Of a stretch of DNA of 64,000 bases, positions 11,090-63,544 are shown one piece after another (positions within the stretch are counted from its first letter, which is position 1; each line of letters opens with the position of its first letter). The notes under the pieces are model-generated. The model searched no databases. It was not told the DNA's origin and saw only the letters and a program-made list of their open reading frames with translations. Source of the stretch: an uncultured Alphaproteobacteria bacterium (GTDB lineage Bacteria > Pseudomonadota > Alphaproteobacteria > ATCC43930 > CGMCC-115725); contig CAWDLZ010000017.1 in the NCBI GenBank assembly GCA_963803265.1, positions 52,813 to 116,812 of the forward strand, given 5' to 3'. A program made the translations under genes and the position numbers.

Positions 11090-12064
11090 CTAAACCGTCA
11101 GCACCGTCGAGCCGGTGGTCTTGCGCGCCTCCAAGTCGCGGTGCGCAAGCGCCACGTCCTTCAAGGGATAGGTCTGGCCGATCTCGATCTTGACCGCGCC
11201 GCTGGCGACGACCTCGAATAATTCCTTCGCCATCGCGCGCAGCCGGTCGGCCGTGGCGGCGTAGTGAACGAGCGTCGGCCGGGTGAGATAGAGCGAGCCC
11301 TTGGCCGAGAGAATGTTGACGCTGAACGGCTCGACGAGGCCCGAGCTCTGCCCGAAGGCGACCATCATTCCCATGGGCCGGAGGCAGTCGAGCGATTTGA
11401 GGAACGTGTCCTTGCCGACCGAGTCATAGACCACCGGCACCTTTTTGCCGCCGGTGATCTCGATGACGCGCTTGACGAAATCCTCGGTGCGGTAATCGAT
11501 CACATGGTCGCAGCCATGCGCCTGGGCGAGCCTGGCCTTGGCCGCGCCGCCGGCGGTGCCGATGACGGTCGCGCCGAGATGCTTGCCCCATTGGCAGGCG
11601 ATCAGCCCGACCCCGCCCGCCGCGGCATGGAACAGGATGGTGTCGCCCGGCTTCACCCGATAGGTCTGGCGCAGCAGATATTGCGCGGTGAGGCCTTTCA
11701 GCATCATCGCCGCCGCCGTTATGTCGCTGACAGCATCGGGCAGCTTGACCAGCCGATCCGCCGGGATGAGCCGCGCCTCGGCATAGGAGCCGATGGGCGC
11801 GTTGCCATAGGCGACGCGGTCGCCGGGTTTGAGATCGGTCACGCCGGGGCCGATTTCCTCGACCACCCCCGCGCCCTCGCCGCCCAGTCCCGAGGGCAGC
11901 GGCAGCGGATAGACGCCGCTGCGGCTATAGACATCGACGAAGTTGAGCCCGACCGCGGTCTGGCTGATCCGCGCCTCGCCGCGTCCGGGCGGGCCCAGCT
12001 GGATTTCCTCCCACGCCATGACTTCGGGGCCGCCTTGCTTGTGAATGCGGATGGCATGGGTCAT
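11090..12064 (-). CDS. qor: NADPH:quinone oxidoreductase (zeta-crystallin-type MDR)
   Basis: 324 aa. GLNFVDVYSRSGVYP, the AAGGVG cofactor motif and overall Qor pattern. Confidence 0.8.
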   Translation of the reverse strand: MTHAIRIHKQGGPEVMAWEEIQLGPPGRGEARISQTAVGLNFVDVYSRSGVYPLPLPSGLGGEGAGVVEEIGPGVTDLKPGDRVAYGNAPIGSYAEARLIPADRLVKLPDAVSDITAAAMMLKGLTAQYLLRQTYRVKPGDTILFHAAAGGVGLIACQWGKHLGATVIGTAGGAAKARLAQAHGCDHVIDYRTEDFVKRVIEITGGKKVPVVYDSVGKDTFLKSLDCLRPMGMMVAFGQSSGLVEPFSVNILSAKGSLYLTRPTLVHYAATADRLRAMAKELFEVVASGAVKIEIGQTYPLKDVALAHRDLEARKTTGSTVLTV

Positions 12065-12182
12065 CGGTTTTCTCCTGTTCGTATCAAAATCTAGACTTGG
12101 AGCGAAGGCTTGTCACGCCGCGCGATCGGCGTAGAGTGCTGCGGAGGCCGCCCGAAGCGCGGCGCAGGGGAAGGGGACGATC

Positions 12183-13259
12183 ATGGCGGCGGATAGGATT
12201 CTCAATTCGTCACGGCGGCATTTCATCGGCGGGCTGGCGGCGGCGGGCGCCGCGACGATGATCCCAACGGGCGCGCCATTCGCGCAGACCGCCAAGCCCA
12301 AGCATCATGGCGTCATCGACACGCACCACCATTTCTGGGCGCCGGAATATTTGCAGGCCCAGAACGACTGGGAAGACCAACACCACGTTCCGCATTATCC
12401 GGCTCATGCCAAGATGAGTCCTGAGATGTCGCTGGCCGAGATGGATCGCGCCGGCGTCCATACGGCGGTTGTGTCGCTGGCTTCGATCAGCGCGGGGTTC
12501 TGGGGGCTCGATGCGCCGGCGGCATCCGCCGTCATTCACAAGGCCGACGATTTCGCCGCCAAGATGATGAGCGACCATCCCGGGCGCTTCGGCTTGCTCG
12601 CGCCGCTCAACATGCTCGATGTCGATCTGTCGCTGAAGGAAATCGAGTATGGCCTCGACCAGATTCATGCGGACGGCATTGGCTTGCAGAGCAGCTACAA
12701 CGGCAGATATCCTGGCGATCCGTTCTACGATCCGATCTGGCAAGAGCTTAACCGCCGCAAGGCGGTCGTGTTTCTCCACGGTCCTAACAATGCGTGCTGC
12801 AGCGCGATCAATGACGGGCCCGGCATGTACGGATCGGTCGTCGAGGTGACCTTCGACGTGACGCGGGCGGCGGCAAGCCTTCTCACCAGCGGCGCGCTGG
12901 TGCGTTACCGCGACATAAAATGGATCCTGCCCTATGGCGGCGGCACCCTGCCATACGTGGCCGGAAGAATCGAAGCGTTCGTCAAGCAAATGAAGACCTA
13001 TAACGACTTCGCTCCCAACGGCGCGACCGCCGAGTTTCAGCGGCTCTATTACGACACCGTCAACGTGACCAATGCGGCGTCGATGGCCGCGCTGTTGAAG
13101 TTGGTGAAGGCCTCGCAGGTGCTCTACGGCACGGATTTCCCTTACTTCACCGACGATCAGCTCGACAACCTCGATCAGCGCGGGCTTTCGGCCAAGGACA
13201 AGGAAGCGATCCTCGCGGGCAACGCCAAGCGCTTGATACCGCGCCTCGCCAAGGCATGA
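12183..13259 (+). CDS. Tat-exported amidohydrolase-2 (ACMSD-like metal-dependent hydrolase) family protein
   Basis: 358 aa. Twin-arginine signal SRRHFIGGLAAAGA...AQT and the VIDTHHHFW metal-binding motif. Confidence 0.75.
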   Translation: MAADRILNSSRRHFIGGLAAAGAATMIPTGAPFAQTAKPKHHGVIDTHHHFWAPEYLQAQNDWEDQHHVPHYPAHAKMSPEMSLAEMDRAGVHTAVVSLASISAGFWGLDAPAASAVIHKADDFAAKMMSDHPGRFGLLAPLNMLDVDLSLKEIEYGLDQIHADGIGLQSSYNGRYPGDPFYDPIWQELNRRKAVVFLHGPNNACCSAINDGPGMYGSVVEVTFDVTRAAASLLTSGALVRYRDIKWILPYGGGTLPYVAGRIEAFVKQMKTYNDFAPNGATAEFQRLYYDTVNVTNAASMAALLKLVKASQVLYGTDFPYFTDDQLDNLDQRGLSAKDKEAILAGNAKRLIPRLAKA

Positions 13260-14251
13260 GGCCCGTGGCCAGACGCGTCGCTTTCCTCGCTGCGGCGCTC
13301 GCCTTCGGCCTCGCTTGCGGGCAGGCGAACGCCCAATCGAAGCTCGAGGTCAGCCTTTTTCCCAGTTCCGGCTGGGTGCTGAATTCGGGCGTCGCGGCGG
13401 GATATTTCGCTCGGCAAGGGCTCGCCATCCATCTCGATCCGGTCACCGGCTCGGTCGCGCAGATCACCGGCATGATGGACGGCACTTACGACCTAGGCCT
13501 CACCGCGCTCGACAATGTGATCGCCTACGATGCCGGCCAGGGCGAGGCGAAGCTCGCGCAAACCCCCGATCTCGTCGTGTTCATGGGCGGCGAAGGCGGC
13601 GCGCTTCATCTCATTACCGCGCCCGCGATCAAGAGGGTCGAGGACCTGAAGGGCGACACTCTCGCCGTCGACGCCAAGACCACGGGCTTTGCCTTCGTGC
13701 TCTATCGCATCCTGGCGCGGCACGGGTTGAAGCCGGGCGATTACAGCCTCATCGCCGCGGGCAGCTCGCAGAAGCGGCTCGATGCGCTGCTCGGCGGCAA
13801 GGCCGTCGGCGCCCTGCTCGACCGGCCGTTCGATTCCTTTGCCACGGCCAAGGGCTTCAACGATCTCGTCCAAATGAACAAGGTGTTCCCGCATTACCAA
13901 TCGGGGGTTGGCATGGCGCGGCGCGCCTGGGCGAGGCAGCACCGCGCCCAGCTGGTCGGCTTCATCCGCGCCTATGTCCAAGCCGGAAGGTGGCTGTTCG
14001 ATCCCAAGAACAAGCAGGCGGCGATCGATCTCCTCATCAAGACCACGCCCAATCTGCCGCGCGCGACCGCCGAGACGATCTATCGCGACACGACCGGTCG
14101 AGGCAGCACGACCGTGCCGGATGCCGCGCTCGACGTGAAAGGCATCGCGACGGTGGTGGCGCTGCGCAGCGAATATGGCGAGCCCAAGACGAAGCTCGAC
14201 GCCAGGCAGTTCTATGATTTGAGCTACTATCGCGCCGCGACCGGCAAGTAA
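13256..14251 (+). CDS. Periplasmic substrate-binding protein, NMT1/THI5-like (nitrate/sulfonate/taurine type)
   Basis: 331 aa. Signal peptide (AFLAAALAFGLACGQANA). 4-nt overlap with the amidohydrolase gene. The fold assignment rests on overall pattern only. Confidence 0.65.
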   Translation: MRPVARRVAFLAAALAFGLACGQANAQSKLEVSLFPSSGWVLNSGVAAGYFARQGLAIHLDPVTGSVAQITGMMDGTYDLGLTALDNVIAYDAGQGEAKLAQTPDLVVFMGGEGGALHLITAPAIKRVEDLKGDTLAVDAKTTGFAFVLYRILARHGLKPGDYSLIAAGSSQKRLDALLGGKAVGALLDRPFDSFATAKGFNDLVQMNKVFPHYQSGVGMARRAWARQHRAQLVGFIRAYVQAGRWLFDPKNKQAAIDLLIKTTPNLPRATAETIYRDTTGRGSTTVPDAALDVKGIATVVALRSEYGEPKTKLDARQFYDLSYYRAATGK

Positions 14252-14257
14252 TCCGCG

Positions 14258-14710
14258 CTACAGCAAGAGCGCCCCTTCGAGCTGCAGCAGCTTGCGCTTG
14301 GTTTCGACGCCGCCGCCGCCGCTATAGCCGCCAAGCTCGCCGTCCGAGCCGACAACCCGATGGCAGGGCAGCAGGATCGGCAGCGGATTGCGCGCGCAAG
14401 CCCGCCCGACGCTGCGCGCGCTCAAGCCCAGCTCGCGCGCGAGCGCGCCGTAGGAGCGGGTCGCGCCGTAAGGAATCTCGGCCATCGCCGCCCAGACGCG
14501 CTGCTCGGTCTCCGAGCCCTCGGGCGCGAGCGGCAGGTCGAATGCCTTGCGCCGCCTGGCGAAATAGGCCGCGAGCTGGCGCTTGGCGTCGGCCAGGAGG
14601 CGGCTGGGCTTGCCCGCCGACTTGCCGCCCCAAACCAGCGCCGTGATCGCCCCATTCTCTTCAAAGAGTGTCAAACGGCCGAGCGGGCTGTCGAGCGACA
14701 GGCGCGGCAA
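14258..14710 (-). CDS. ogt: Methylated-DNA--protein-cysteine methyltransferase
   Basis: 150 aa. Active-site PCHRVV and the YGATRSYGALA helix. Confidence 0.85.
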   Translation of the reverse strand: MPRLSLDSPLGRLTLFEENGAITALVWGGKSAGKPSRLLADAKRQLAAYFARRRKAFDLPLAPEGSETEQRVWAAMAEIPYGATRSYGALARELGLSARSVGRACARNPLPILLPCHRVVGSDGELGGYSGGGGVETKRKLLQLEGALLL

Positions 14711-14713
14711 GGC

Positions 14714-16741
<2,028 letters not shown>

Positions 16742-54733: not shown

Positions 54734-55207
54734 TCACGTCACTCGATACAGATAATCGCCATGCTCGCGCACGCCTTCGGGCGGCGGGATGGCCTCCCAG
54801 CCGGGCAATTCGAGCGGTATTTCCGATATCACCACGGCACCGGGGCGAAGCATCGGCGCAACCAGTGGCGCGAGCACGCTGGCCATCCGCGTCGCGACCG
54901 GCAGGTTGAGATGAACCAAGGCGGCTTCGCGCGGCCAACGCTGCCACGCTTGCGGTAGCGTGTCGCACGGATCGCCGAGGATTCGCAGATCGGGCGTCGG
55001 CGGCGCGTCGGCGGGCGCGGAGATCGCGCGGTCGAATACCGCAATGGCGCGCCGGCGCATGATGTCGCGCAGATGATCGTAGGCGACGCCGTCGCCCCAG
55101 CCGATGGCCAGCGCCGGGCCGGGAAGCTGCGTCACCGTCGCCGCAGCCCGCTCCAGGCTGGCGCGCTGGCTCATCAGCCGTCGGATCAAGCTGTCCAGGG
55201 CGCTCAA
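54734..55207 (-). CDS. Conserved hypothetical protein, probably co-transcribed with the upstream response regulator
   Basis: 157 aa. Its start lies 1 nt after the response-regulator stop. No motif that I can name with confidence. Confidence 0.55.
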   Translation of the reverse strand: MSALDSLIRRLMSQRASLERAAATVTQLPGPALAIGWGDGVAYDHLRDIMRRRAIAVFDRAISAPADAPPTPDLRILGDPCDTLPQAWQRWPREAALVHLNLPVATRMASVLAPLVAPMLRPGAVVISEIPLELPGWEAIPPPEGVREHGDYLYRVT

Positions 55208-55208
55208 T

Positions 55209-55898
55209 TCATGGCACCAGCCGATAGCCGCCGGGCGCGGTCACCAGGATCTCGGCCTTGCCCGGATCGCGCTCGATCTTCTGGCGCAGCCGATAGACAT
55301 GGGTCTCCAAGGTGTGCGTCGTGACGCCGGAATTGTAGCCCCAGACCTCGTTCAACAACACGTCGCGCCCGATGACCTTGTCGCCGGCGCGGTAGAGATA
55401 TTTGAGAATCGCGGTTTCCTTTTCGGTCAGCCGCACCTTCTTGCGCTTGGCGTCGTCGGCCAGGGTCTTGGCGCTCGGACGAAAGGTATAGGGGCCGATG
55501 CTGAAGACCGCGTCCTCGCTGAGCTCGTGCTGGCGCAGCTGGGCGCGCAACCGCGCCAAGAGCACGTTCAGGCGGAAGGGCTTGGTGATGTAGTCGTTGG
55601 CGCCGCTATCGAGGCCGAGAATCGTGTCGGCCTCGCCATCGGCGCCGGTCAGCATCAAAATGGGCGCGCGAATGCCCGAACGGCGCATCACCTGGCACAA
55701 CTCGCGCCCGTCCATGTCAGGGAGTCCGACATCGAGCAGCACCGCGTCGAAGTGCTGCTCTTTCGCCCGCGCCATCGCCTGGGCGGCGGTCGCGGCTTCG
55801 GTAGGCAGAAATTCCTCGTGCAGTTGAAGCTGCTCGGCGAGCGCGCGACGCAGCGTATCGTCATCGTCAACGATCAGAATCTTACGCCCAGCGGTCAT
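55209..55898 (-). CDS. OmpR/PhoB-family response regulator (CenR-like)
   Basis: 229 aa. Receiver domain (ILIVDDDD...LLDVGLPDMDG...KPF) plus winged helix (LTEKETAILKYLYRAG...GYNSGVTTHTLETHVYRLRQKI). The resemblance to CenR is from memory. Confidence 0.8.
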   Translation of the reverse strand: MTAGRKILIVDDDDTLRRALAEQLQLHEEFLPTEAATAAQAMARAKEQHFDAVLLDVGLPDMDGRELCQVMRRSGIRAPILMLTGADGEADTILGLDSGANDYITKPFRLNVLLARLRAQLRQHELSEDAVFSIGPYTFRPSAKTLADDAKRKKVRLTEKETAILKYLYRAGDKVIGRDVLLNEVWGYNSGVTTHTLETHVYRLRQKIERDPGKAEILVTAPGGYRLVP

Positions 55899-55976: not shown

Positions 55977-56261
55977 TCAGCGCTGAACCTCGACGCCCTT
56001 CCAGAAAGCGACATAATTCTTGATCTGCGCCGCCGCCGGCGAGGGGTCGGGGTAATACCAGGCCGCGTCCTTGTTTTCCGCGCCCTCGACTGCGATCGTG
56101 TAGTAATGCGCCGTGCCTTTCCAGTGGCACTGGCTGGTGGTGGCGCTCGCGGTGAAAAAGCGCCGGTCGATCGTCTCGGGCGGGAAATAAACGTTGCCCT
56201 CGACCAGCTCGAAGCGCGGGCTCTCGGCCAGAACCGCGCCGCGCCAAATTGCCTTGGCCAT
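55977..56261 (-). CDS. DUF427 domain-containing protein
   Basis: 94 aa. VEGNVYFPPETI...CHWKGTAHYYTI...AAWYYPDP. Confidence 0.8.
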   Translation of the reverse strand: MAKAIWRGAVLAESPRFELVEGNVYFPPETIDRRFFTASATTSQCHWKGTAHYYTIAVEGAENKDAAWYYPDPSPAAAQIKNYVAFWKGVEVQR

Positions 56262-56296: not shown

Positions 56297-57166
56297 TTAG
56301 GCGGACAAAGCCAAGGTGTCGCTGTGACCTATCGTAAGCGTCAGCTTACCGTTAAGGAGCTCGGCCAGCCGAGACTTCTGCCACGCGGCGATCGCCGGTT
56401 CTTGTTCGGGCGCCGCCGCGCGCGCGGCAGCGGCCTCGCCGGCAATGAGCTCCGCGAGTATCGCGCGGTTGCCACCCAGCTGCCAGTCGCTCGCCGTCGC
56501 CGAGACCGAAAACCCGTTTTTGGCCAAGGCCTTAGCTAGCGCCTCAGCGGCATCGCCGCCGAGCGCGGGCCCGAAGCCCTTGTCGCCGGCTTGGTGGCGG
56601 CGGAAGGCTCGCCCGACGATCGCGTCTTCGGCATGTTCCGGCCGCCATTCCCGCCTGCCGTCGAGCGTGAGCGCGGCGAGCAGCGGGAGGCGCAGCCGGG
56701 CGAGCAGGATGGTCAATTCCATTACGAACTCGCGCGAAACCAGATCGAACAGCGACGCCGCCGCGACCCCATCGGCGCCCAGCGTGGCGAGGCGGCCCAA
56801 GTCGCGCGCCAGGTCGAGCGCTACGCCGCAGAGCGTCCACCTTGCCGCGCCGACCGTGATCTCGATCCTTCCGCCGCCGGCGCGAATGGGATAGCCCTGG
56901 CGCCGCGCCCAGGCCGTGAATTCCCCTGCCTGCGCCGCGATCAGCAGGGGCTCGCGCTCGATCAGGAGCCAGTCCTGGTCGCCCGCGATGCGCGGCAGGA
57001 GAGCGCGGCAATTGGCGCCCGTGCCCGCGCCGAGATCGAGGAGCCTCACCGCGCGGGTCTTGGGGCGCGGCAGCGCCGCGGCGAAGCGCCGCGCCAGTAC
57101 AGGATCGCGCGCAGCGAGGTCGGCGCCTTCGCGCAGCCGCAGCCAATCGGGCGAGAATTCGCTCAT
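56297..57166 (-). CDS. Class I SAM-dependent methyltransferase
   Basis: Start at MSEFSPDWL (ATGA overlap with the GT4 stop). Motif I is VRLLDLGAGTGAN. Confidence 0.75.
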   Translation of the reverse strand: MSEFSPDWLRLREGADLAARDPVLARRFAAALPRPKTRAVRLLDLGAGTGANCRALLPRIAGDQDWLLIEREPLLIAAQAGEFTAWARRQGYPIRAGGGRIEITVGAARWTLCGVALDLARDLGRLATLGADGVAAASLFDLVSREFVMELTILLARLRLPLLAALTLDGRREWRPEHAEDAIVGRAFRRHQAGDKGFGPALGGDAAEALAKALAKNGFSVSATASDWQLGGNRAILAELIAGEAAAARAAAPEQEPAIAAWQKSRLAELLNGKLTLTIGHSDTLALSA

Positions 57167-58215
57167 GCCAGCAAGCGTAGCGCTTCCGCGCGCCAGCGCG
57201 AGGCCGCCTCGGCCCAATCGGGCAAGGCCGCGCCCGCCCGCAAGGCGCCTTCGCCGAGGGCGGCCAGATAATCCCGGTCGTCGAGGAGCCGCCAGAGCGC
57301 TTCCTCAAGCGCCGCGCCGTCGCCGGGCGGCACCAGGAGGGCGGCGCTCAGGGGCACGATTTCTGGGATGGCGCCCGCGCGCGTCGAGACGACCGCCAAG
57401 CCATGGGCGAGCGCCTCGGCCAAGGCCATGCCATAGCCTTCATGGAACGAGGGCAGAACGAATAAATCGGCCTCCTCGTAGGCAGCACCCAGGCGCTCGG
57501 ACGGGATTTCGCCGCCGAGGGTGACGCGCCCCTCGAGGCCGTTGGCGGCGATTGCGCGGCTCACCGCGGCGGCATAGGCGGGGTCGCGCGTAGGGCTCCC
57601 GATCAAGAGGAGCCGCCAATCCGGCCGCTTAAGGCTCGCCAGCGCCTCGACGAGGACGAGCTGCCCCTTGCGCGGCGTGACGGAAGCTACGCAGAGGAGG
57701 CGGACGGCGCCGTGCTGCCTGCCCCGCGTGCGTCTCGTCGCCGGCTTGGCCGTGCCTGGCGCAGCGACTCCGATACGAGCGCGCGATACTCCGGCGCCGA
57801 TGACCGCTTCGGCCGTGCTTCGGCTCGGGCAGAGGACGCCGGCGAGCAGCGGCAAGAGGCGCGCCTCGATCTCGCGGAACCGGGCCGCCTCCGCCGCGCT
57901 CAAGCCCGTTTCCTCGGCCAGGGGATGATGCACCCAGCCGATGAAATGGAGCCGCCTTGCTTCGCGCTTCAGGCAAGGCTCGAACGCGGCGAGCGCCAGC
58001 CCGTCGATGACGGCCGCAGCGCCGTCGGGCAGGGCAGAGAGCGCTTCCGCCGCGCTCTCGCGGGCAATGCCGTCGGCGGCGGGAAACCTTCCCCGCAGTT
58101 CGACCACGTCGATCGTATCGCCCTGCGCGCGCAAGCGCTCGACGACGTGGCGGGCAAAGAGATAGCCGCCGGTTAATTGGTCGATCGCGTTAGGCACGAT
58201 GAGCGCGAGCCTCAA
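57163..58215 (-). CDS. Glycosyltransferase family 4 (GT-B fold)
   Basis: 350 aa. EX7E motif PSFHEGYGMALAEALAHG. 4-nt overlaps with both neighbours. Confidence 0.8.
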   Translation of the reverse strand: MRLALIVPNAIDQLTGGYLFARHVVERLRAQGDTIDVVELRGRFPAADGIARESAAEALSALPDGAAAVIDGLALAAFEPCLKREARRLHFIGWVHHPLAEETGLSAAEAARFREIEARLLPLLAGVLCPSRSTAEAVIGAGVSRARIGVAAPGTAKPATRRTRGRQHGAVRLLCVASVTPRKGQLVLVEALASLKRPDWRLLLIGSPTRDPAYAAAVSRAIAANGLEGRVTLGGEIPSERLGAAYEEADLFVLPSFHEGYGMALAEALAHGLAVVSTRAGAIPEIVPLSAALLVPPGDGAALEEALWRLLDDRDYLAALGEGALRAGAALPDWAEAASRWRAEALRLLA

Positions 58216-58616
58216 TCGAGCCGGCCTTCGCAGGACGCTACGGCGACGGGCGATTCGCGCAAACGCACGCAGAGCGCGGCCAGCGCTCCGGCGGTCCCGG
58301 GCCCCAGCGCGCCACCGCTAATGCGCGCCTTCAAGCGGCGGAAGATCTCGCCCGCGAGGAATTCGGTGGTGGTGTTGCGCCCCTTGAATAGGGGCTCGTC
58401 GTCGAGATTGCGGTAATTGAGCTCGTCCAGGACCGATTTCAGGGTCGCGAGGAGGCGGCCGATATCGCAAACGAGGCCGTCGCCGTCGAGCTCGGCGCGC
58501 CGCACTTCCGCCTCGACCGCGTAGGTCGCGCCGTGGAGGCGCTGCGCCGGGCCGAAAATCTCGCCGACGAAGCTGTGCGCGATCATCACATGGTCGCTGA
58601 CGGCAAGGCTGTACAT
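58212..58616 (-). CDS. 6-pyruvoyl-tetrahydropterin synthase / QueD-family protein with non-canonical active site
   Basis: 134 aa from MYSLAVSDHVMIAHSF...AQRLHGATYAVEAEV...DIGRLLATLKSVLDELNYRNLD. Fold-level PTPS pattern, but the CxxxHGH motif is AxxxHGA here. Confidence 0.7.
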   Translation of the reverse strand: MYSLAVSDHVMIAHSFVGEIFGPAQRLHGATYAVEAEVRRAELDGDGLVCDIGRLLATLKSVLDELNYRNLDDEPLFKGRNTTTEFLAGEIFRRLKARISGGALGPGTAGALAALCVRLRESPVAVASCEGRLD

Positions 58617-58742
58617 CGGGCGATATCCGATAGCGGAAGGAAGCCTAATCGCGATGTTGCCAGATTTGGCGCAAATCGGCCAGACGACCCGTCCCTTGAT
58701 TAGTCCTGATAAAGATGTATCGTATATGGTACACAGCGCTCG

Positions 58743-59042
58743 ATGGATAGAGCAATGAAAAAAAAGAACCGCCACATCGGCTCTTCCTTCGATGATTTTT
58801 TGAAGGAAGAAGGTCTCCACGAGGAAGTCACCGCGCACGCCATTAAGCGCGTGCTGGCGTGGCAGATCGAGCGGGCGATGAAAGAGCAAGGCATCACGAA
58901 AGTCGAAATGGCGAAGCGCATGAAAACTAGCCGCGCGCAGCTCGACCGGCTCCTCGATCCGAAAAACGACAAGGTGCAACTCGACACTGTGCAGCGCGCC
59001 GCCGCCGCCGTCGGACGGAAATTGCACATGGAACTCGCGTAG
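58743..59042 (+). CDS. XRE-type HTH protein resembling a type II antitoxin (no toxin gene adjacent)
   Basis: 99 aa. HIGSSFDDFLKEEGLHEEVTAHAIKRVLAWQIERAMKEQGITKVEMAKRMKTSRAQLDRLLDP. Low GC. An imperfect inverted repeat TGTATCGTA/TATGGTACA lies at 58716-58733 upstream. Confidence 0.7.
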   Translation: MDRAMKKKNRHIGSSFDDFLKEEGLHEEVTAHAIKRVLAWQIERAMKEQGITKVEMAKRMKTSRAQLDRLLDPKNDKVQLDTVQRAAAAVGRKLHMELA

Positions 59043-59147
59043 AGGCCGCGACGACCCAGCCGCGCCATCTCACGTGGCAACACATCGAGCCGGCACTCCG
59101 CGATTCGGAGTGCGTTATAGAGCGGTCTGCTACAGCTTCAATCCGCT

Positions 59148-59438
59148 TTACCCCGGCCCCGTGGCATGGAACTGCTTGACGCGCAGTTTGCGGGTGCGGC
59201 GTTTCGCTTGCCACAGATCGTAGTTAAGCTGCATTTGCAGCCAATGCTCCGGCGTGCTGCCGAACGCCTTCGATAGACGCAAGGCCATTTCCGCCGTGAT
59301 GCCGGAGCGGCCGTTGAGGATCGGCGAGAGCGTCTTGCGCGTGACGCCCAAGCCCTTGGCCGCCTCGGTGACGCTCAGGTCGAGCGCCTTAAGGCAGTGC
59401 TCCCGGACGATCTCGCCGGGGTGCGGGGGATTGTACAT
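59148..59438 (-). CDS. higA: HigA-family antitoxin-like HTH protein (orphan)
   Basis: 96 aa from [70 protein letters not shown]. No HigB-like ORF upstream. Confidence 0.8.
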
Positions 59439-59497
59439 CTCCAATACCTCACGATCGGGCGTCGCGCGGCGCCGGCCTCGATCCTGCGCCCGCGCGC

Positions 59498-59899
59498 TCA
59501 CGAGTCGGTCGGGCGCACGAAGCAATAGATCGGGTTGCCGCCCAGCGGATAGAACGCGACCGCGCTGCCGGTCGGGTTCTCGACGCGGTTCAGCACCGCG
59601 TTGGGCGGCACGTCGCGCCAAATCCCGTCGATCCGCACCTGGTAGCCATCGGGCAGGGCGCGCCACTCGTGGCTGGCCAGGATGTGGCCGTCATATTGGG
59701 CGCAGCAGGAAATCCCGCTCGTCGGATTTGCGAGGCTCTCGAACCAGCCGCTCAGCGCCGGATCGGCCTGGGGCGGCGGCGCGCCCCAAGCGCCCAAGGG
59801 AAGGACGAGGTTCGCCGCGCCGAGGAAAGCGGCGGCCCAGGCATTGGCAAACTTTAGCGGCTTTCGGTCTCTCGCCGGGGATTGGGAGTCGATCAGCAT
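59498..59899 (-). CDS. Small secreted hypothetical protein
   Basis: 133 aa. Signal peptide ([18 protein letters not shown]) and a Cys-containing mature part ([12 protein letters not shown]...IYCFVRP). Confidence 0.55.
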
Positions 59900-60053
59900 C
59901 TCTGCGCCTCCACGAGTTGAGCGCTAGCCGACGTCGCCTCCCGAAGTTCCGATATCCCCCTCTTTCCCCGATGGAACCAAGGCTAAAGCAACACGGGAAT
60001 TTACTCAAGCGCGCGATCGCGAGTCGCTGGCCCGGTGAAGACCGCCGCCGCTT

Positions 60054-61025
60054 CTAATACCTCACCACTTGGCACAGCGCGCCGGAGGGCGCGGCGGCGA
60101 GCCGCGCCATTTCTTGCGGCAGTTGGTCGAGCCCGCACTCGCCGGAGACGAGCTTGTCATAGATCGGATCGGCCAGCAGCGCTAAGGCGAGCTCAAGCCG
60201 CTGGCGACGGCTGCGCCGCGCGCGGCGGGCCTGAGCCACTGCGCCGACTTGGCTCGATTTGAGCGTCAGGCGGCGGCTGTGGAATTCCTCGCCCAAGGGT
60301 GCCGCCACGCTGCGGTCGCCATACCAGCTCAGCTCGATCACGCTCGCCTCGAAGCCGGCAAGCTGCAGCGCCGTCGCTAACCCGGCGGGCTGGCCGCTCG
60401 CGTGAAACACCAGATCGGCGTCGCCCGAGGCGTCCTCCGGCAGGGCGAAACGGCAACCGAGCGTCGCGGCTAGGCGCGCGCGGCCAGGGTTGATGTCGAT
60501 GAGCTCGACGTGAAGCGCCGGCAGCTTCGCGACCAGCGATGCGACCAGGCACCCGACCACGCCCGCGCCGATGACGGCGACACGGTCGCCGATGCGGGGG
60601 CCTGCGTCCCAGGTCGCGTTGAGCGCGGTTTCCATGTTGGCCGCGAGCACGGCGCGCTCGCTCGGCACCGCGTCGGGCACGGGCACGAGCGCCGCTTCCG
60701 GCACGACATAGCGATCCTGATGCGGGTAGAGGCAGAAGACGCGCCTGCCCCTAAGCTCGGCCGATCCCTCTTCGACGATGCCGACCGAGGCGTAGCCGTA
60801 TTTCACCGGCGCGGGAAACTCGCCGTCCTGGAACGGGCAACGCATCGCGCTTTTCTGGCTGGCCGGCACCTGGCCCCTGAACACCAGGTTCTCGCTGCCG
60901 CGGCTGATGCCGCTAAAGACGGCGCGCACCAGCGCCTCGCCGGGCGCGCGGGGTTTGAGCGCCACGTCGCGAATCTCGCCGCGGCCGGCCTCGGCCAGCC
61001 AGAAGGCGCGCGCCTCAACTGCCAT
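60054..61025 (-). CDS. Zinc-type (MDR superfamily, BchC-like) alcohol dehydrogenase family protein
   Basis: Start at MAVEARAFWL. GISRGSENLVFRG, KYGYASVG and the VAVIGAGVVG Rossmann motif. 11-nt overlap with the RibD-C gene. Confidence 0.75.
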   Translation of the reverse strand: MAVEARAFWLAEAGRGEIRDVALKPRAPGEALVRAVFSGISRGSENLVFRGQVPASQKSAMRCPFQDGEFPAPVKYGYASVGIVEEGSAELRGRRVFCLYPHQDRYVVPEAALVPVPDAVPSERAVLAANMETALNATWDAGPRIGDRVAVIGAGVVGCLVASLVAKLPALHVELIDINPGRARLAATLGCRFALPEDASGDADLVFHASGQPAGLATALQLAGFEASVIELSWYGDRSVAAPLGEEFHSRRLTLKSSQVGAVAQARRARRSRRQRLELALALLADPIYDKLVSGECGLDQLPQEMARLAAAPSGALCQVVRY

Positions 61026-61800
61026 CGCCGCCGTCGAAGATGCACTCGAACAGGATGTCCTGGCCCAGCGCGACGCGCCGGACATTCGGGCGCAGGCCTA
61101 GGCCGGGCCCAGCGATCTCGGGCAGCGACAGGCTCGGCCGGCCCGAGCCCAGGATCATCGGCGCCACCGTCAGCTGCAACCGGTCGAGGCAGCGCGCGCG
61201 CAGGAAATGCGAGACAGTGATGCCGCCGCCCTCGATGAACAGAAAATGAAGCCGCCGCTCGGCCAGCGCCCGCGCGATCGCAGCTGGCGCGATGATGCCG
61301 TCCTGGCGCGGCAGCTTCACGACCTCGGCCGCGCCCGCGCTTGCGGCCTTGGGGCAATCGCTGGCGGCAATGACGAGGGTGCGCGCGCTGGCGTCGGTGA
61401 AGACGCGGTGATGGGGCCCAAGCCTGCGGTCGGGGTCGATCACCACCCGCACGGGATGCTCGCCCTGGCAGCGCCGAACGGTCAAGAGCGGGTCGTCGTT
61501 GCGGATGGTGTCGGCGCCCACCACGACCGCGTCGGCGAGCGCCCGCAAGCGGTGGGTATGGCGCAAATCCTCCTCGCCCGAGATCCAGCGCGAGGCGCCC
61601 GAGGCGGTGGCAATGCGGCCGTCGAGGCTTTGCGCCAAATGCGCGACGGCAAAGCTCTGGCCGCGCGGCACGGCGCAGAGCGGCCCGTAGAGCTCGGCGA
61701 GCTCGCCCCCGCCCGGCGGCGCCCCCGCGCCGCGCCGGCACGCCAGCATCGCTTGCCACTGCGCGTCGGCGCGCGCGGCTATGTCGCCCTCGGCGGCCAT
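61015..61800 (-). CDS. RibD C-terminal domain (pyrimidine reductase-like) protein, no deaminase domain
   Basis: 261 aa. AQSLDGRIATASG, DAVVVGADTIRNDDPLLTVR and FIEGGGITVSHFL. Confidence 0.8.
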   Translation of the reverse strand: MAAEGDIAARADAQWQAMLACRRGAGAPPGGGELAELYGPLCAVPRGQSFAVAHLAQSLDGRIATASGASRWISGEEDLRHTHRLRALADAVVVGADTIRNDDPLLTVRRCQGEHPVRVVIDPDRRLGPHHRVFTDASARTLVIAASDCPKAASAGAAEVVKLPRQDGIIAPAAIARALAERRLHFLFIEGGGITVSHFLRARCLDRLQLTVAPMILGSGRPSLSLPEIAGPGLGLRPNVRRVALGQDILFECIFDGGDGS

Positions 61801-61826
61801 GCTAGACCCATTCCCCGGAACGCATA

Positions 61827-62432
61827 ATGGGCAAGGAGCGGTTCCTGGTCACACACAATTTTTCGCGAGCCATCCCGCAGCCGTTCGGCGCCGCGAACTG
61901 GGTGACGCTGGTGCGCGCGATTTTTGCCGCAGCGCTTCTCGGAGGCGCGGCGGGCGCGGCCTGGGGCGGGCTTGTCCTCGGGGAGGGCGTGCGCTGGGCG
62001 GTGACCGCCGGCGCCGCGGCGGCGCTCGCGCTCGATGGCATCGACGGCGCGCTCGCGCGGCGGCTCGGCCGGGAAAGCCGCTTCGGCGCGCGCTTCGATA
62101 TGGAAACCGACTCAGCGACAATCCTGGCTTTGGCGCTGCTGGTCTGGCTCTCGGGCCAGGCCGGGGCGTGGGTTCTCCTTAGCGGCCTCTTACGCTATGG
62201 CTTCTTAGCGGCGGGCTGGCTGGCGCCGGCGCTAGCGGCCCCGCTGCCGCCGCGCCGGCGCCGGCAAACGGTGTGCGTCGCGCAGATGGCGGCCTTGATC
62301 CTGGCCTTGGCGCCGCCAATTACAGGCGTCTGGGGCGCGAGAATTTGCCTCGCCGGGCTGATGCTGCTGGGCTATTCCTTCGCCAGCGACGTCGCCTGGC
62401 TGGCGCGGCGGAAAAGCGAGGCGGCGGGTTGA
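61827..62432 (+). CDS. CDP-alcohol phosphatidyltransferase family membrane protein
   Basis: 201 aa, multi-TM. Signature DGIDGALARRLGRESRFGARFDMETD (DGx2ARx8Gx3Dx3D). Confidence 0.85.
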   Translation: MGKERFLVTHNFSRAIPQPFGAANWVTLVRAIFAAALLGGAAGAAWGGLVLGEGVRWAVTAGAAAALALDGIDGALARRLGRESRFGARFDMETDSATILALALLVWLSGQAGAWVLLSGLLRYGFLAAGWLAPALAAPLPPRRRRQTVCVAQMAALILALAPPITGVWGARICLAGLMLLGYSFASDVAWLARRKSEAAG

Positions 62433-62449
62433 ACGGTTCCGGCGAAGCA

Positions 62450-63544
62450 ATGACGGATCTACGATTGCTCAGGCTCATCGACCGCGTTATGGGCGATCTG
62501 CGGCGGGGCGACTTCGCGCTGATCCGCGGCACTAGGCGCAGCGCCGTGATCCAGGCCGCCGAGGAGGCGACCAGCGACAGCCTGGCGCGGCTGGCGACGC
62601 TGGCCTCGGGCGCGGTCGAACTCGCCTTGACGCGGCGCCGCGCGGCGGTGCTCGGCCTGGCGCCGGCGCCGAGCGCGTCCGGCGGCAGCGTGGTGCTGAA
62701 GATTCCGCCCGGCACCGAGGCGTCCTATGTCCATCGGCTCGCCGATCCCGGCGCCGCGGTGGTCGGGCTCGGGGTGGTGGCGCCCGTGGGCGACGCCGTA
62801 GCCGACGCGGCGGTCGAATTGACGAAGCTCGCGCGCTTGCTGCCGGCCGCGATTATCGCCGCGGTCGTGCCCGGCGACACCGCCAAGCTCGCCGCCGAGT
62901 ACGGCCTCTTCGTGGTCGAGGCGGCCGGGGTGTTCGCCTATCAGCAGGCTGCCGCGCGCAGCTTGCGGATCGTGAGCGAGGCGCGCGTGCCGCTCGCCGA
63001 TGCCGAGAACACGCGCCTCGTTCATTTCCGGCCCGCCGACGGCGGGGTCGGTCATGTCGCGATCGTCATCGGCGATCCCGATCCGGCTTCGCCCGTGCTG
63101 GTGCGGCTGCATTCCGAATGCTTCACCGGCGATCTCCTGGGCAGTCTGCGCTGCGATTGCGGCGATCAACTGCGCGGCGCGATCGCCGAGATCGCGCGGG
63201 CCGGCGGCGGCGCGGTGCTCTATTTGTCGCAGGAAGGCCGCGGGATCGGCCTTGCCAACAAGCTCCGGGCCTATGAGCTGCAGGACGCCGGCTTCGACAC
63301 GGTCGACGCCAACGAGCTCCTCGGCTTCGACGCCGACGAGCGGGTCTACCTGCCGGCGGTCGCGATGCTGCGCGCGCTCGGCTTCTCGCGGGTGCGGCTG
63401 CTCACCAACAATCCCGAGAAGGTCGCGGCGCTGACCAAGGCGGGGATCGAGGTGGTCGAGCGGGTGCCGCATATCTTTCCGGCCAACGCCCATAACGAGC
63501 GCTATCTGCGCACCAAGGCGCGGCGCGGCGGGCACCTGCTCTAA
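62450..63544 (+). CDS. ribA: GTP cyclohydrolase II with ~170-aa N-terminal extension
   Basis: 364 aa from MTDLRLLRL. C-terminal VRLHSECFTGDLLGSLRCDCG (zinc Cys triad), QEGRGIGLANKLRAYELQ and LLTNNPEKV. Confidence 0.85.
   Translation: MTDLRLLRLIDRVMGDLRRGDFALIRGTRRSAVIQAAEEATSDSLARLATLASGAVELALTRRRAAVLGLAPAPSASGGSVVLKIPPGTEASYVHRLADPGAAVVGLGVVAPVGDAVADAAVELTKLARLLPAAIIAAVVPGDTAKLAAEYGLFVVEAAGVFAYQQAAARSLRIVSEARVPLADAENTRLVHFRPADGGVGHVAIVIGDPDPASPVLVRLHSECFTGDLLGSLRCDCGDQLRGAIAEIARAGGGAVLYLSQEGRGIGLANKLRAYELQDAGFDTVDANELLGFDADERVYLPAVAMLRALGFSRVRLLTNNPEKVAALTKAGIEVVERVPHIFPANAHNERYLRTKARRGGHLL

Follow-up and report, generated by a model that had tools for sequence, protein, structure and literature searches.

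The closest known counterpart of the locus reported here is found in Streptomyces coelicolor. The locus is a cluster of seven genes at 56297-63544 of a 64,000-nt stretch of alphaproteobacterial DNA (hereafter the window, whose positions are used as coordinates throughout), and it encodes, among others, a GTP cyclohydrolase II (GCH II) and a T-fold protein resembling 6-pyruvoyltetrahydropterin synthase (PTPS). In S. coelicolor, these two correspond to SCO6655, which we take to be the variant GCH II of the cluster there, and SCO6650, which is said in its 2008 structure paper to miss the zinc and the catalytic triad and to have no PTPS activity. Spoonamore et al. reportedly showed in 2006 (Biochemistry) that a Tyr-to-Met substitution in SCO6655 stops the reaction at a formylated formamidopyrimidine (FAPy) intermediate. 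Both proteins were thus reportedly studied in vitro in 2006-2008, with no pathway assigned. Of the third RibA copy in S. coelicolor, a 2026 review says that it "exhibited a completely new function". Our full-text search of the literature found no paper on the cluster or assigning its pathway, and no curated family was found to assign one either.

Our analysis identified the window cluster as the widespread counterpart of this Streptomyces cluster, assembled from known enzyme kinds. The cluster occurs in at least eight phyla; its seven genes are linked far beyond chance and form one functional unit, as the first-pass annotation of the window had claimed; the linkage of orthologues in other genomes, which was offered there as the check, has now been run and found. 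We hold it to be about an even chance that this unit is biosynthetic and makes a GTP-derived metabolite via the steps proposed below. The product would probably be a sugar-decorated, methylated compound of pterin or pyrimidine type, possibly attached to a membrane lipid.

Linkage of the seven genes across bacteria

Gene calls from an open reading frame (ORF) map, a Pfam scan and an NCBIfam scan (release June 2026) of the window proteins agreed with the families claimed earlier for the seven genes, namely a methyltransferase (MT), a group 1 glycosyltransferase (GT4), the PTPS-like T-fold protein, a medium-chain dehydrogenase/reductase (MDR), a RibD_C reductase, a CDP-alcohol phosphatidyltransferase (CDP-OH transferase) and GCH II (Table 1). 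NCBIfam holds no family-specific model for any of them. A scan of one genome per species for close relatives of the PTPS-like protein returned at least 468 loci in species-representative genomes of soil, freshwater and marine bacteria, including Streptomyces. The best 80 of these loci were fetched, in which the T-fold homologues are 58-84% identical to the window protein, and metagenomic homologues number thousands more. The seven window proteins were compared with the fetched loci by tblastn, and the counts given here refer to those 44 loci whose flanks reach at least 8 kb on either side. All-against-all clustering of the ORFs yielded one large spurious family (cluster 0, high GC), and only Pfam-confirmed clusters were used.

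The core order MDR, PTPS-like, GT4, MT is kept on one strand in 37-44 of the 44 loci, and all seven genes are present in 20. The RibD_C gene has two placements: in some lineages it is upstream and in the same orientation, in others it is found downstream next to GCH II and in the opposite orientation. That RibD_C and GCH II switch strand and side yet stay nearby points to functional coupling and not to inherited synteny. The cluster is not restricted to Alphaproteobacteria, in which it is carried by Stellaceae, Stella, Inquilinus, Acetobacteraceae and Azospirillaceae; other carriers include Burkholderiales (Betaproteobacteria), Gammaproteobacteria, Gemmatimonadota, Acidobacteriota (Vicinamibacterales), Cyanobacteria and, among Actinomycetota, Micromonospora, Dactylosporangium, Pseudonocardia and Saccharopolyspora. 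In Bacteroidota, one short contig (L066), which is not among the 44 loci, carries the core.

The same genes might be read as two unrelated modules that happen to adjoin, namely a spare riboflavin-entry pair (GCH II and reductase) and ordinary envelope glycolipid genes, given that GCH II and RibD_C alone would be of riboflavin type and that the GT4, CDP-OH transferase and MT families are common in envelope loci. However, the association survives rearrangement, with RibD_C within 5 kb in 41 of the 44 loci, and the T-fold protein, with its pterin/pyrimidine-binding residues, always lies between MDR and GT4 and ties both halves together. We regard such a chance neighbourhood as very improbable.

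Table 1. Coordinates of the seven genes, the insert and the neighbouring genes in the window, with the occurrence of each cluster gene among the 44 loci compared
Feature	Position	Strand	Size and family	Loci	Placement in the loci
Methyltransf_17 gene	54734-55207	-			
OmpR-type response regulator	55209-55898	-			
DUF427 gene	55977-56261	-	94 aa; PF04248 (NTP_transf_9)		
MT, predicted class I, dependent on S-adenosylmethionine (SAM), unnamed family	56297-57166	-	289 aa; SAM motif I	37/44	same strand as PTPS-like gene
GT4 (group 1) glycosyltransferase	57163-58215	-	344-350 aa; PF13692, PF00534	41/44	directly downstream of PTPS-like gene, median +416 nt, same strand
PTPS-like T-fold protein, predicted SCO6650 orthologue	58212-58616	-	134 aa; PF01242		
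Insert, outside the pathway	58617-60053		lower GC; 3 unrelated ORFs		
XRE-type helix-turn-helix ORF, in insert	58743-59042	+			
HigA-family antitoxin, in insert	59148-59438	-	TIGR02607, 1.7e-33		
133-aa ORF, in insert	59498-59899	-	133 aa		
MDR, BchC-like, predicted zinc-less	60054-61025	-	323 aa	44/44	upstream of PTPS-like gene, same strand
Stand-alone RibD_C pyrimidine reductase, without deaminase domain	61015-61800	-	261 aa; PF01872	41/44	within 5 kb of PTPS-like gene, either strand
Divergent intergenic spacer	61801-61826		26 nt, by direct sequence reading		
CDP-OH transferase, membrane protein	61827-62432	+	201 aa; PF01066	30/44	always opposite strand, divergent from core
GCH II, with apparently degenerate RibB-like N-terminal domain	62450-63544	+	PF00925	28/44	variable
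All seven genes				20/44	

The Streptomyces locus (L085, of the coelicolor group), which was fetched by a search with the SCO6650 sequence, has the CDP-OH transferase gene divergent from those for MDR (59% identity), the T-fold protein (57%), GT4 and MT, the last of which was not called as a gene there and gives a weak Methyltransf_25 match. The S. coelicolor cluster with SCO6650 and SCO6655 resembles the window in gene set and order, with GCH II nearby. The two differ in their GCH II, which in the Streptomyces cluster is short and carries Met where the E. coli enzyme has Tyr105, and which is of the Tyr type in the window. The Streptomyces cluster also includes a creatininase-family protein and a flippase-like membrane protein (LPG_synthase_TM) but no RibD_C; the window, conversely, has RibD_C and neither a creatininase-family nor a flippase-like gene. 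We judge the window cluster to be orthologous to the coelicolor-group cluster with its SCO6650 and SCO6655 counterparts.

Among the members of the creatininase family are ArfB, the FAPy deformylase of archaea, and a formamidase of S. meliloti. The Streptomyces pair of Met-type GCH II and adjoining creatininase-family protein therefore plausibly reaches 2,5-diamino-6-ribosylamino-4(3H)-pyrimidinone 5'-phosphate (DARP) in two steps. A creatininase-family gene adjoins GCH II in 12-14 loci, many of which have a Tyr105 GCH II, so FAPy deformylation alone fails to explain its presence. From the comparison emerges a scheme with three parts: the MDR/T-fold/GT4/MT core, which is fixed; a module for entry from GTP, which takes two forms (a Tyr-type GCH II, or a Met-type GCH II with a creatininase-family enzyme); and a phosphatidyltransferase-flippase module, which is optional. 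Relative to the PTPS-like gene, the creatininase-family gene was observed at roughly +4 to +6 kb in L030, L032, L035, L036, L040, L045, L046, L048, L051, L052, L070, L075 and L083.

Protein families and the putative pathway

The GCH II of the window matches PF00925 (3.2e-58) and scores above the cutoffs of TIGR00505 (217.7 against 205.85) and NF001591 (240.6 against 148). It carries all six canonical catalytic residues that were checked, namely the zinc ligands Cys54, Cys65 and Cys67 together with Tyr105, Arg128 and Lys154 in E. coli numbering. Since they are intact, the enzyme should make DARP directly, and the pathway would start from GTP; this conversion, step 1, is the only step that we consider well supported. 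Upstream of the catalytic domain, the DHBP_synthase profile (PF00926) reaches 24.3 bits against a cutoff of 26.4 at profile positions 6-67 of 191, the 170 N-terminal residues are poorly conserved in the family alignment, and the scores for the two bifunctional RibBA equivalogs are 253 (cutoff 569) and 240 (cutoff 764). The N-terminus therefore appears to be a degenerate RibB-like remnant. Translation may start at ATG 62450 (364 aa) or ATG 62489 (351 aa). As an observation apart, the cluster-linked GCH II of Pseudonocardia bannensis (L081, about 14193-14762) has Ser at the Tyr105 position, His at Arg128 and Glu at Lys154, and may be degenerate or changed in function.

The RibD_C protein matches PF01872 (1.3e-40, 139.7 bits against a cutoff of 24.1) over residues 53-228 only, and a Pfam scan found no deaminase domain in it. 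Its scores are 136.8 bits for TIGR00227, under the cutoff of 150, 113 for TIGR01508, and 122.8 against 156.35 for the bifunctional RibD model TIGR00326. The motifs QSLDGRIA, DDP.LTVR and EGGG are conserved in the family alignment, and we assume for them the substrate and NADPH roles that they have in RibG structures. With the reductase motifs kept and the deaminase absent, the enzyme would, as step 2, turn the ribosyl group into ribityl by reduction and leave the 2-amino group in place, which is suggested by its family membership and conserved motifs. A 2-amino ribityl compound is not a normal product of the bacterial riboflavin route.

The dehydrogenase had been called a zinc enzyme, a description that does not hold. 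The zinc-ligand Cys and His positions are absent, and the ADH_zinc_N profile (PF00107) reaches 17.5 against a cutoff of 31.8. The sites of the zinc Cys (GxCxxD) and of His-Glu (GHE), placed by eye from motifs, are occupied by SGISRGSE and KYGYASVG (KYGY..VG in the family), and the nucleotide motif GxGxxG (GAGVVG) is retained in the family alignment; the MDR is thus predicted not to be a zinc enzyme. Its best NCBIfam match is BchC (TIGR01202, 2.5e-13), at 49.8 bits against a cutoff of 291, which is a family-level likeness only, and there are no bch genes near the cluster. BchC is a dehydrogenase that turns a secondary alcohol into a ketone. The nearest solved structures are polyol dehydrogenases, for which the PDB alignment covers residues 100-234 only. 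As step 3, the MDR would form a ketone on the polyol-phosphate chain by oxidising one of its secondary hydroxyls. If the 2' position were oxidised, the 5-amino group could condense with it to give a pterin like 7,8-dihydroneopterin-3'-phosphate, the same condensation logic as in GTP cyclohydrolase I (GCH I) and in the chlamydial RibA/TrpF bypass.

That chlamydial route, a folate bypass to dihydroneopterin phosphate that depends on GCH II and employs RibA and TrpF, was reportedly described by Adams et al. in 2014. It would be a hypothetical parallel to the window cluster in that the GCH II product would give rise to a pterin ring by way of a 2'-keto (Amadori-type) intermediate and without GCH I, whereas here the keto intermediate would be formed by RibD_C and then MDR, not by TrpF, and no folate genes are linked. 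A housekeeping folate bypass was considered as well and judged unlikely, since a cofactor route would not need the GT4, MT, CDP-OH transferase and flippase-like genes.

The T-fold protein matches PF01242 (6e-21, 75 bits against a cutoff of 22.4) and, over 131 residues, the "Uncharacterized protein SCO6650" of S. coelicolor (PDB 3D7J, E 2.7e-39). According to the motifs of COG0720 subfamilies I-III, PTPS and QueD proteins have HGH after a catalytic Cys (CxxxHGH, CxxxxxHGH) or Glu (ExxHGH) (PMC5041015). The window protein reads PAQRLHGAT, with HGA for HGH and no Cys or Glu at -3, -4 or -6, and FGPAQ.LHGAT is conserved across 83 sequences. Furthermore, its NY aligns with the DH of C. elegans PTPS (2g64), the family conserving nYrNLD. 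With the zinc motif, the Cys/Glu and the Asp-His pair all absent, a catalytic PTPS/QueD identity is ruled out, and the protein is predicted to be an SCO6650 orthologue, neither PTPS nor QueD. The Thr-x-Glu motif, which binds the 2-amino-4-oxopyrimidine face, is kept, the TTTEF of the window protein being conserved in the family and matched to TSEN of 2g64 in the alignment. As step 4, and speculatively, the T-fold protein might bind the intermediate and aid ring closure or side-chain chemistry. Compared with PTPS/QueD (COG0720) and pterin-glycoside pathways, the window likewise has a PF01242 T-fold, Thr-x-Glu and an adjoining glycosyltransferase, but it differs in HGA for HGH, Asn-Tyr for Asp-His, the missing Cys/Glu and the missing GCH I. 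The earlier exclusion of the folate and queuosine routes is accordingly borne out by a T-fold protein without catalytic residues.

The GT4 protein matches PF13692 (1.1e-29) and PF00534 (1e-27, 97.2 against a cutoff of 26.4) and reaches no equivalog cutoff, its best score being 88.9 against 400. Among solved structures, sucrose-phosphate synthase, MshA and PimB' come closest to it. A glycosyltransferase cluster of the MSMEG_0565 type was also considered and rejected, with TIGR04047 at 74.5 bits against a cutoff of 260 and a different gene set. The MT has no Pfam or NCBIfam match, while its SAM motif I, DLGAGTG, is conserved in 63 homologues. An AlphaFold2 model of it (predicted local distance difference test, pLDDT, 90.3) was matched by Foldseek to class I small-molecule and lipid methyltransferases with E of about 1e-8 to 1e-9 (best 2e-9, probability 1.00) at modest query-normalised TM-scores of 0.36-0.54. 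It is predicted to be a SAM-binding class I methyltransferase, and the Foldseek matches are all generic for class I and do not distinguish N-, O- and C-methylation. As step 5, GT4 would add a sugar and MT a methyl group.

Like the early riboflavin pathway of the archaeal/fungal order, in which reduction comes before deamination, the window has GCH II and RibD_C. However, it contains no deaminase, RibB activity, lumazine synthase (RibH) or riboflavin synthase (RibE) within 10 kb on either side, which upholds the earlier view that this is not a riboflavin operon, and the pair is coupled to the MDR, T-fold, GT4, MT and CDP-OH transferase genes.

A likeness of logic had been drawn to toxoflavin biosynthesis, and the Pfam and NCBIfam assignments agree that GCH II (ToxB), a RibD-family enzyme (ToxE) and a methyltransferase (ToxA) recur in the window as the same enzyme kinds. 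The cluster could then be a secondary-metabolite cluster of the toxoflavin/fervenulin kind that makes a toxin, antibiotic or signal; it occurs in natural-product-rich actinomycetes, and the GT4 could supply tailoring or self-resistance. Against this, RibD_C has no deaminase domain, the MDR, T-fold, GT4 and CDP-OH transferase genes have no toxoflavin counterpart, and no further conserved genes like ToxC or ToxD appeared in the ORF clustering, in which ORFs were grouped without a search with the ToxC or ToxD sequences. In addition, the T-fold protein is 58-84% identical across phyla, the cluster occupies a syntenic chromosomal site among housekeeping genes in Stellaceae-like genomes, and the ORF clustering found no dedicated regulator or exporter conserved with it. 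These last three points are more in keeping with a physiological role, in the envelope or as a cofactor, than with a strain-specific metabolite, and we consider a secondary-metabolite cluster quite unlikely. Anti-phage defence was checked separately with PADLOC and rejected, none of the seven proteins (0/7) matching any model at E <= 0.001.

Possible lipid attachment and the weighing of the pathway

The CDP-OH transferase matches PF01066 (2.4e-13, 51.2 bits against a cutoff of 22), and its motif D-x2-D-G-x2-A-R-x8-G-x3-D-x3-D is intact and conserved in the family alignment (LDGIDGALARRLGRESRFGARFDMETD). Its best equivalogs, all weak, are phosphatidylinositol phosphate (PIP) synthase, archaetidylinositol-phosphate (AIP) synthase and PgsA, with scores of 24.2 against 170 for PIP synthase, 19.6 against 109 for PgsA and 17.6 against 107 for Pss. 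The relatives of GT4 and of the CDP-OH transferase use sugar-phosphate, polyol-phosphate or phosphatidylinositol acceptors. The flippase-like LPG_synthase_TM gene follows MT in 17 of the 44 loci and is accompanied by the CDP-OH transferase in 16 of these 17 (Fisher p 0.007, not corrected for phylogeny); it is absent from the window and from most alphaproteobacterial loci. As step 6, the CDP-OH transferase would join the polyol-phosphate head group to CDP-diacylglycerol, along the lines of PIP synthase plus PimA, and in lineages with LPG_synthase_TM the lipid would then be flipped to the outer leaflet, the whole of this step being suggested only by the co-occurrence of the genes.

An analogy for such a product is phosphatidylinositol and phosphatidylinositol mannoside synthesis, which likewise has a small CDP-OH transferase, a GT4 near MshA and PimB' and, in other lineages, a flippase-like protein. 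The window differs from it in that no inositol-phosphate synthase is present, no equivalog cutoff is reached and the head group would presumably come from GTP. By this analogy, a guanine-derived polyol would replace inositol, and the cluster might make an undescribed bacterial membrane lipid with a pterin or ribitylaminopyrimidine head group that is formed by a GCH II and not a GCH I route, glycosylated, methylated, attached through CDP-diacylglycerol and flipped outward. We put this full version forward as unlikely, though as a substantial minority reading. If the product did prove to be a lipid head group derived from GTP, or the route a new one to pterins, it would open a new branch of purine-derived cofactor and lipid metabolism and would explain the orphan crystal structure of SCO6650 (3D7J).

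Alternatively, the product of the core may be soluble, either a glycoside of a pterin or pyrimidine or a cofactor, comparable to the pterin glycosides of Cyanobacteria and Chlorobium, with the CDP-OH transferase and flippase-like genes as lineage-specific add-ons or genes of another role. This agrees with an invariant core of MDR and T-fold protein (44/44), with RibD_C, GT4 and MT in 37-41 of the 44 loci, with the absence of the CDP-OH transferase from 14 loci and of the flippase-like gene from the window and most alphaproteobacterial loci, and with Cyanobacteria, which keep only RibD_C, MDR, T-fold protein and MT. However, in the 30-31 loci, of five phyla, that have the CDP-OH transferase gene, it lies directly divergent from the core (median -1.35 kb) and without exception on the other strand, and it co-varies with GCH II (25/31, p = 0.004) and with the flippase-like gene. 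Moreover, the pterin-glycoside routes that are known depend on GCH I and on a catalytic PTPS, and the cluster has neither. We find a soluble product rather unlikely.

Turning back to the GTP-derived, reduced, glycosylated, methylated and possibly lipid-linked moiety that the first-pass annotation had put forward, it is consistent with all our findings, and the flippase-like gene that travels with the CDP-OH transferase adds to its lipid part; all of the steps past GCH II are, as before, steps that we infer. Several points weigh against the pathway. The CDP-OH transferase is missing within 8 kb on either side in 14 of the 44 loci, including those of Stella, Burkholderiales and Cyanobacteria, and the cyanobacterial loci are also without GT4, so that lipid attachment and glycosylation may be lineage-specific. 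As the Streptomyces cluster is without RibD_C, either the order of reduction and then oxidation is not universal or the reductase is encoded elsewhere. That order is also roundabout, and an Amadori rearrangement could give the same compound directly. The equivalog matches of GT4, MDR and the CDP-OH transferase lie far under their cutoffs, which makes them a weak guide to substrates, and the literature search found no report of the product or of any step past GCH II. Finally, the operon is split in this window by an insert, and that it is expressed here is a prediction.

The insert, gene layout and neighbouring genes

The insert of 1,437 nt between the MDR and PTPS-like genes has a GC content of 0.61-0.63 against 0.70-0.72 in the flanks. 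Its ORFs, which include HTH_37/HTH_3 profile matches and a HigA-family antitoxin, are not part of the pathway. No cognate toxin ORF is visible in it on the ORF map, and its content has the look of left-over toxin-antitoxin modules. The same junction is 22 nt long in L003, a close relative, and the insert is absent there. Extra DNA or small ORFs were also observed at the MDR/PTPS junction of L004 and L011, the ORF of L004 being likewise 133 aa long, and the junction may be a recurrent insertion site.

The insert bears on the layout of two divergent units as first described. The divergent arrangement stands, and the start codons are 26 nt apart as claimed; the minus-strand unit is not contiguous, with the insert between the MDR stop at 60054 and the PTPS-like start at 58616. 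Overlaps of 4-11 nt within each unit were confirmed for RibD_C/MDR (11 nt), PTPS/GT4 (4 nt, with a TTG start) and GT4/MT (4 nt), but not for the CDP-OH transferase and GCH II genes, which are separated by a gap of 17-56 nt that is set by the choice of start codon. A promoter scan found no sigma-70-like site in the 26-nt spacer, a promoter and terminator scan of the cluster gave nothing above shuffled expectation, and an Rfam search of the cluster found no riboswitch or other RNA element.

The closest named relatives of the window are Stellaceae-like alphaproteobacterial metagenome-assembled genomes. A contig of the European Nucleotide Archive (ENA), L001, is 99.9% identical to the window with five indels, one of which frameshifts the MDR gene (L001 10776-11748, called as 193 aa there). 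The gene is intact in the window and in the independent Logan contig L002, and the frameshift probably arose through faulty assembly of the ENA record.

Some variation was seen among the loci compared. The Cyanobium/Aphanothece loci L047, L054, L055, L057, L058 and L059 have only RibD_C, MDR, T-fold protein and MT, with no GT4 or CDP-OH transferase nearby. In L075 (Vicinamibacterales), a fumarylacetoacetate-hydrolase-family gene (11524-12345) lies between GT4 and MT, and in L004 a 2OG-Fe oxygenase (PF10014, 4767-5492) lies between the CDP-OH transferase and RibD_C; both are lineage-specific insertions inside the cluster.

Downstream of the MT gene in the window, the DUF427 gene follows on the same strand after 35 nt, a position that it keeps in nine Stellaceae-like loci according to the ORF clustering. 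The cluster is further flanked by an OmpR-type response regulator, with no partner histidine kinase adjoining it in the window, and by a Methyltransf_17 gene, and this pair is syntenic in L003. By ORF clustering, 19 loci have a member of a response-regulator family downstream of the core, and nine (L049 4371-6203 and eight others) have, some 2.2 kb downstream, a glucan glucosyltransferase like OpgH/MdoH that was identified by eye.

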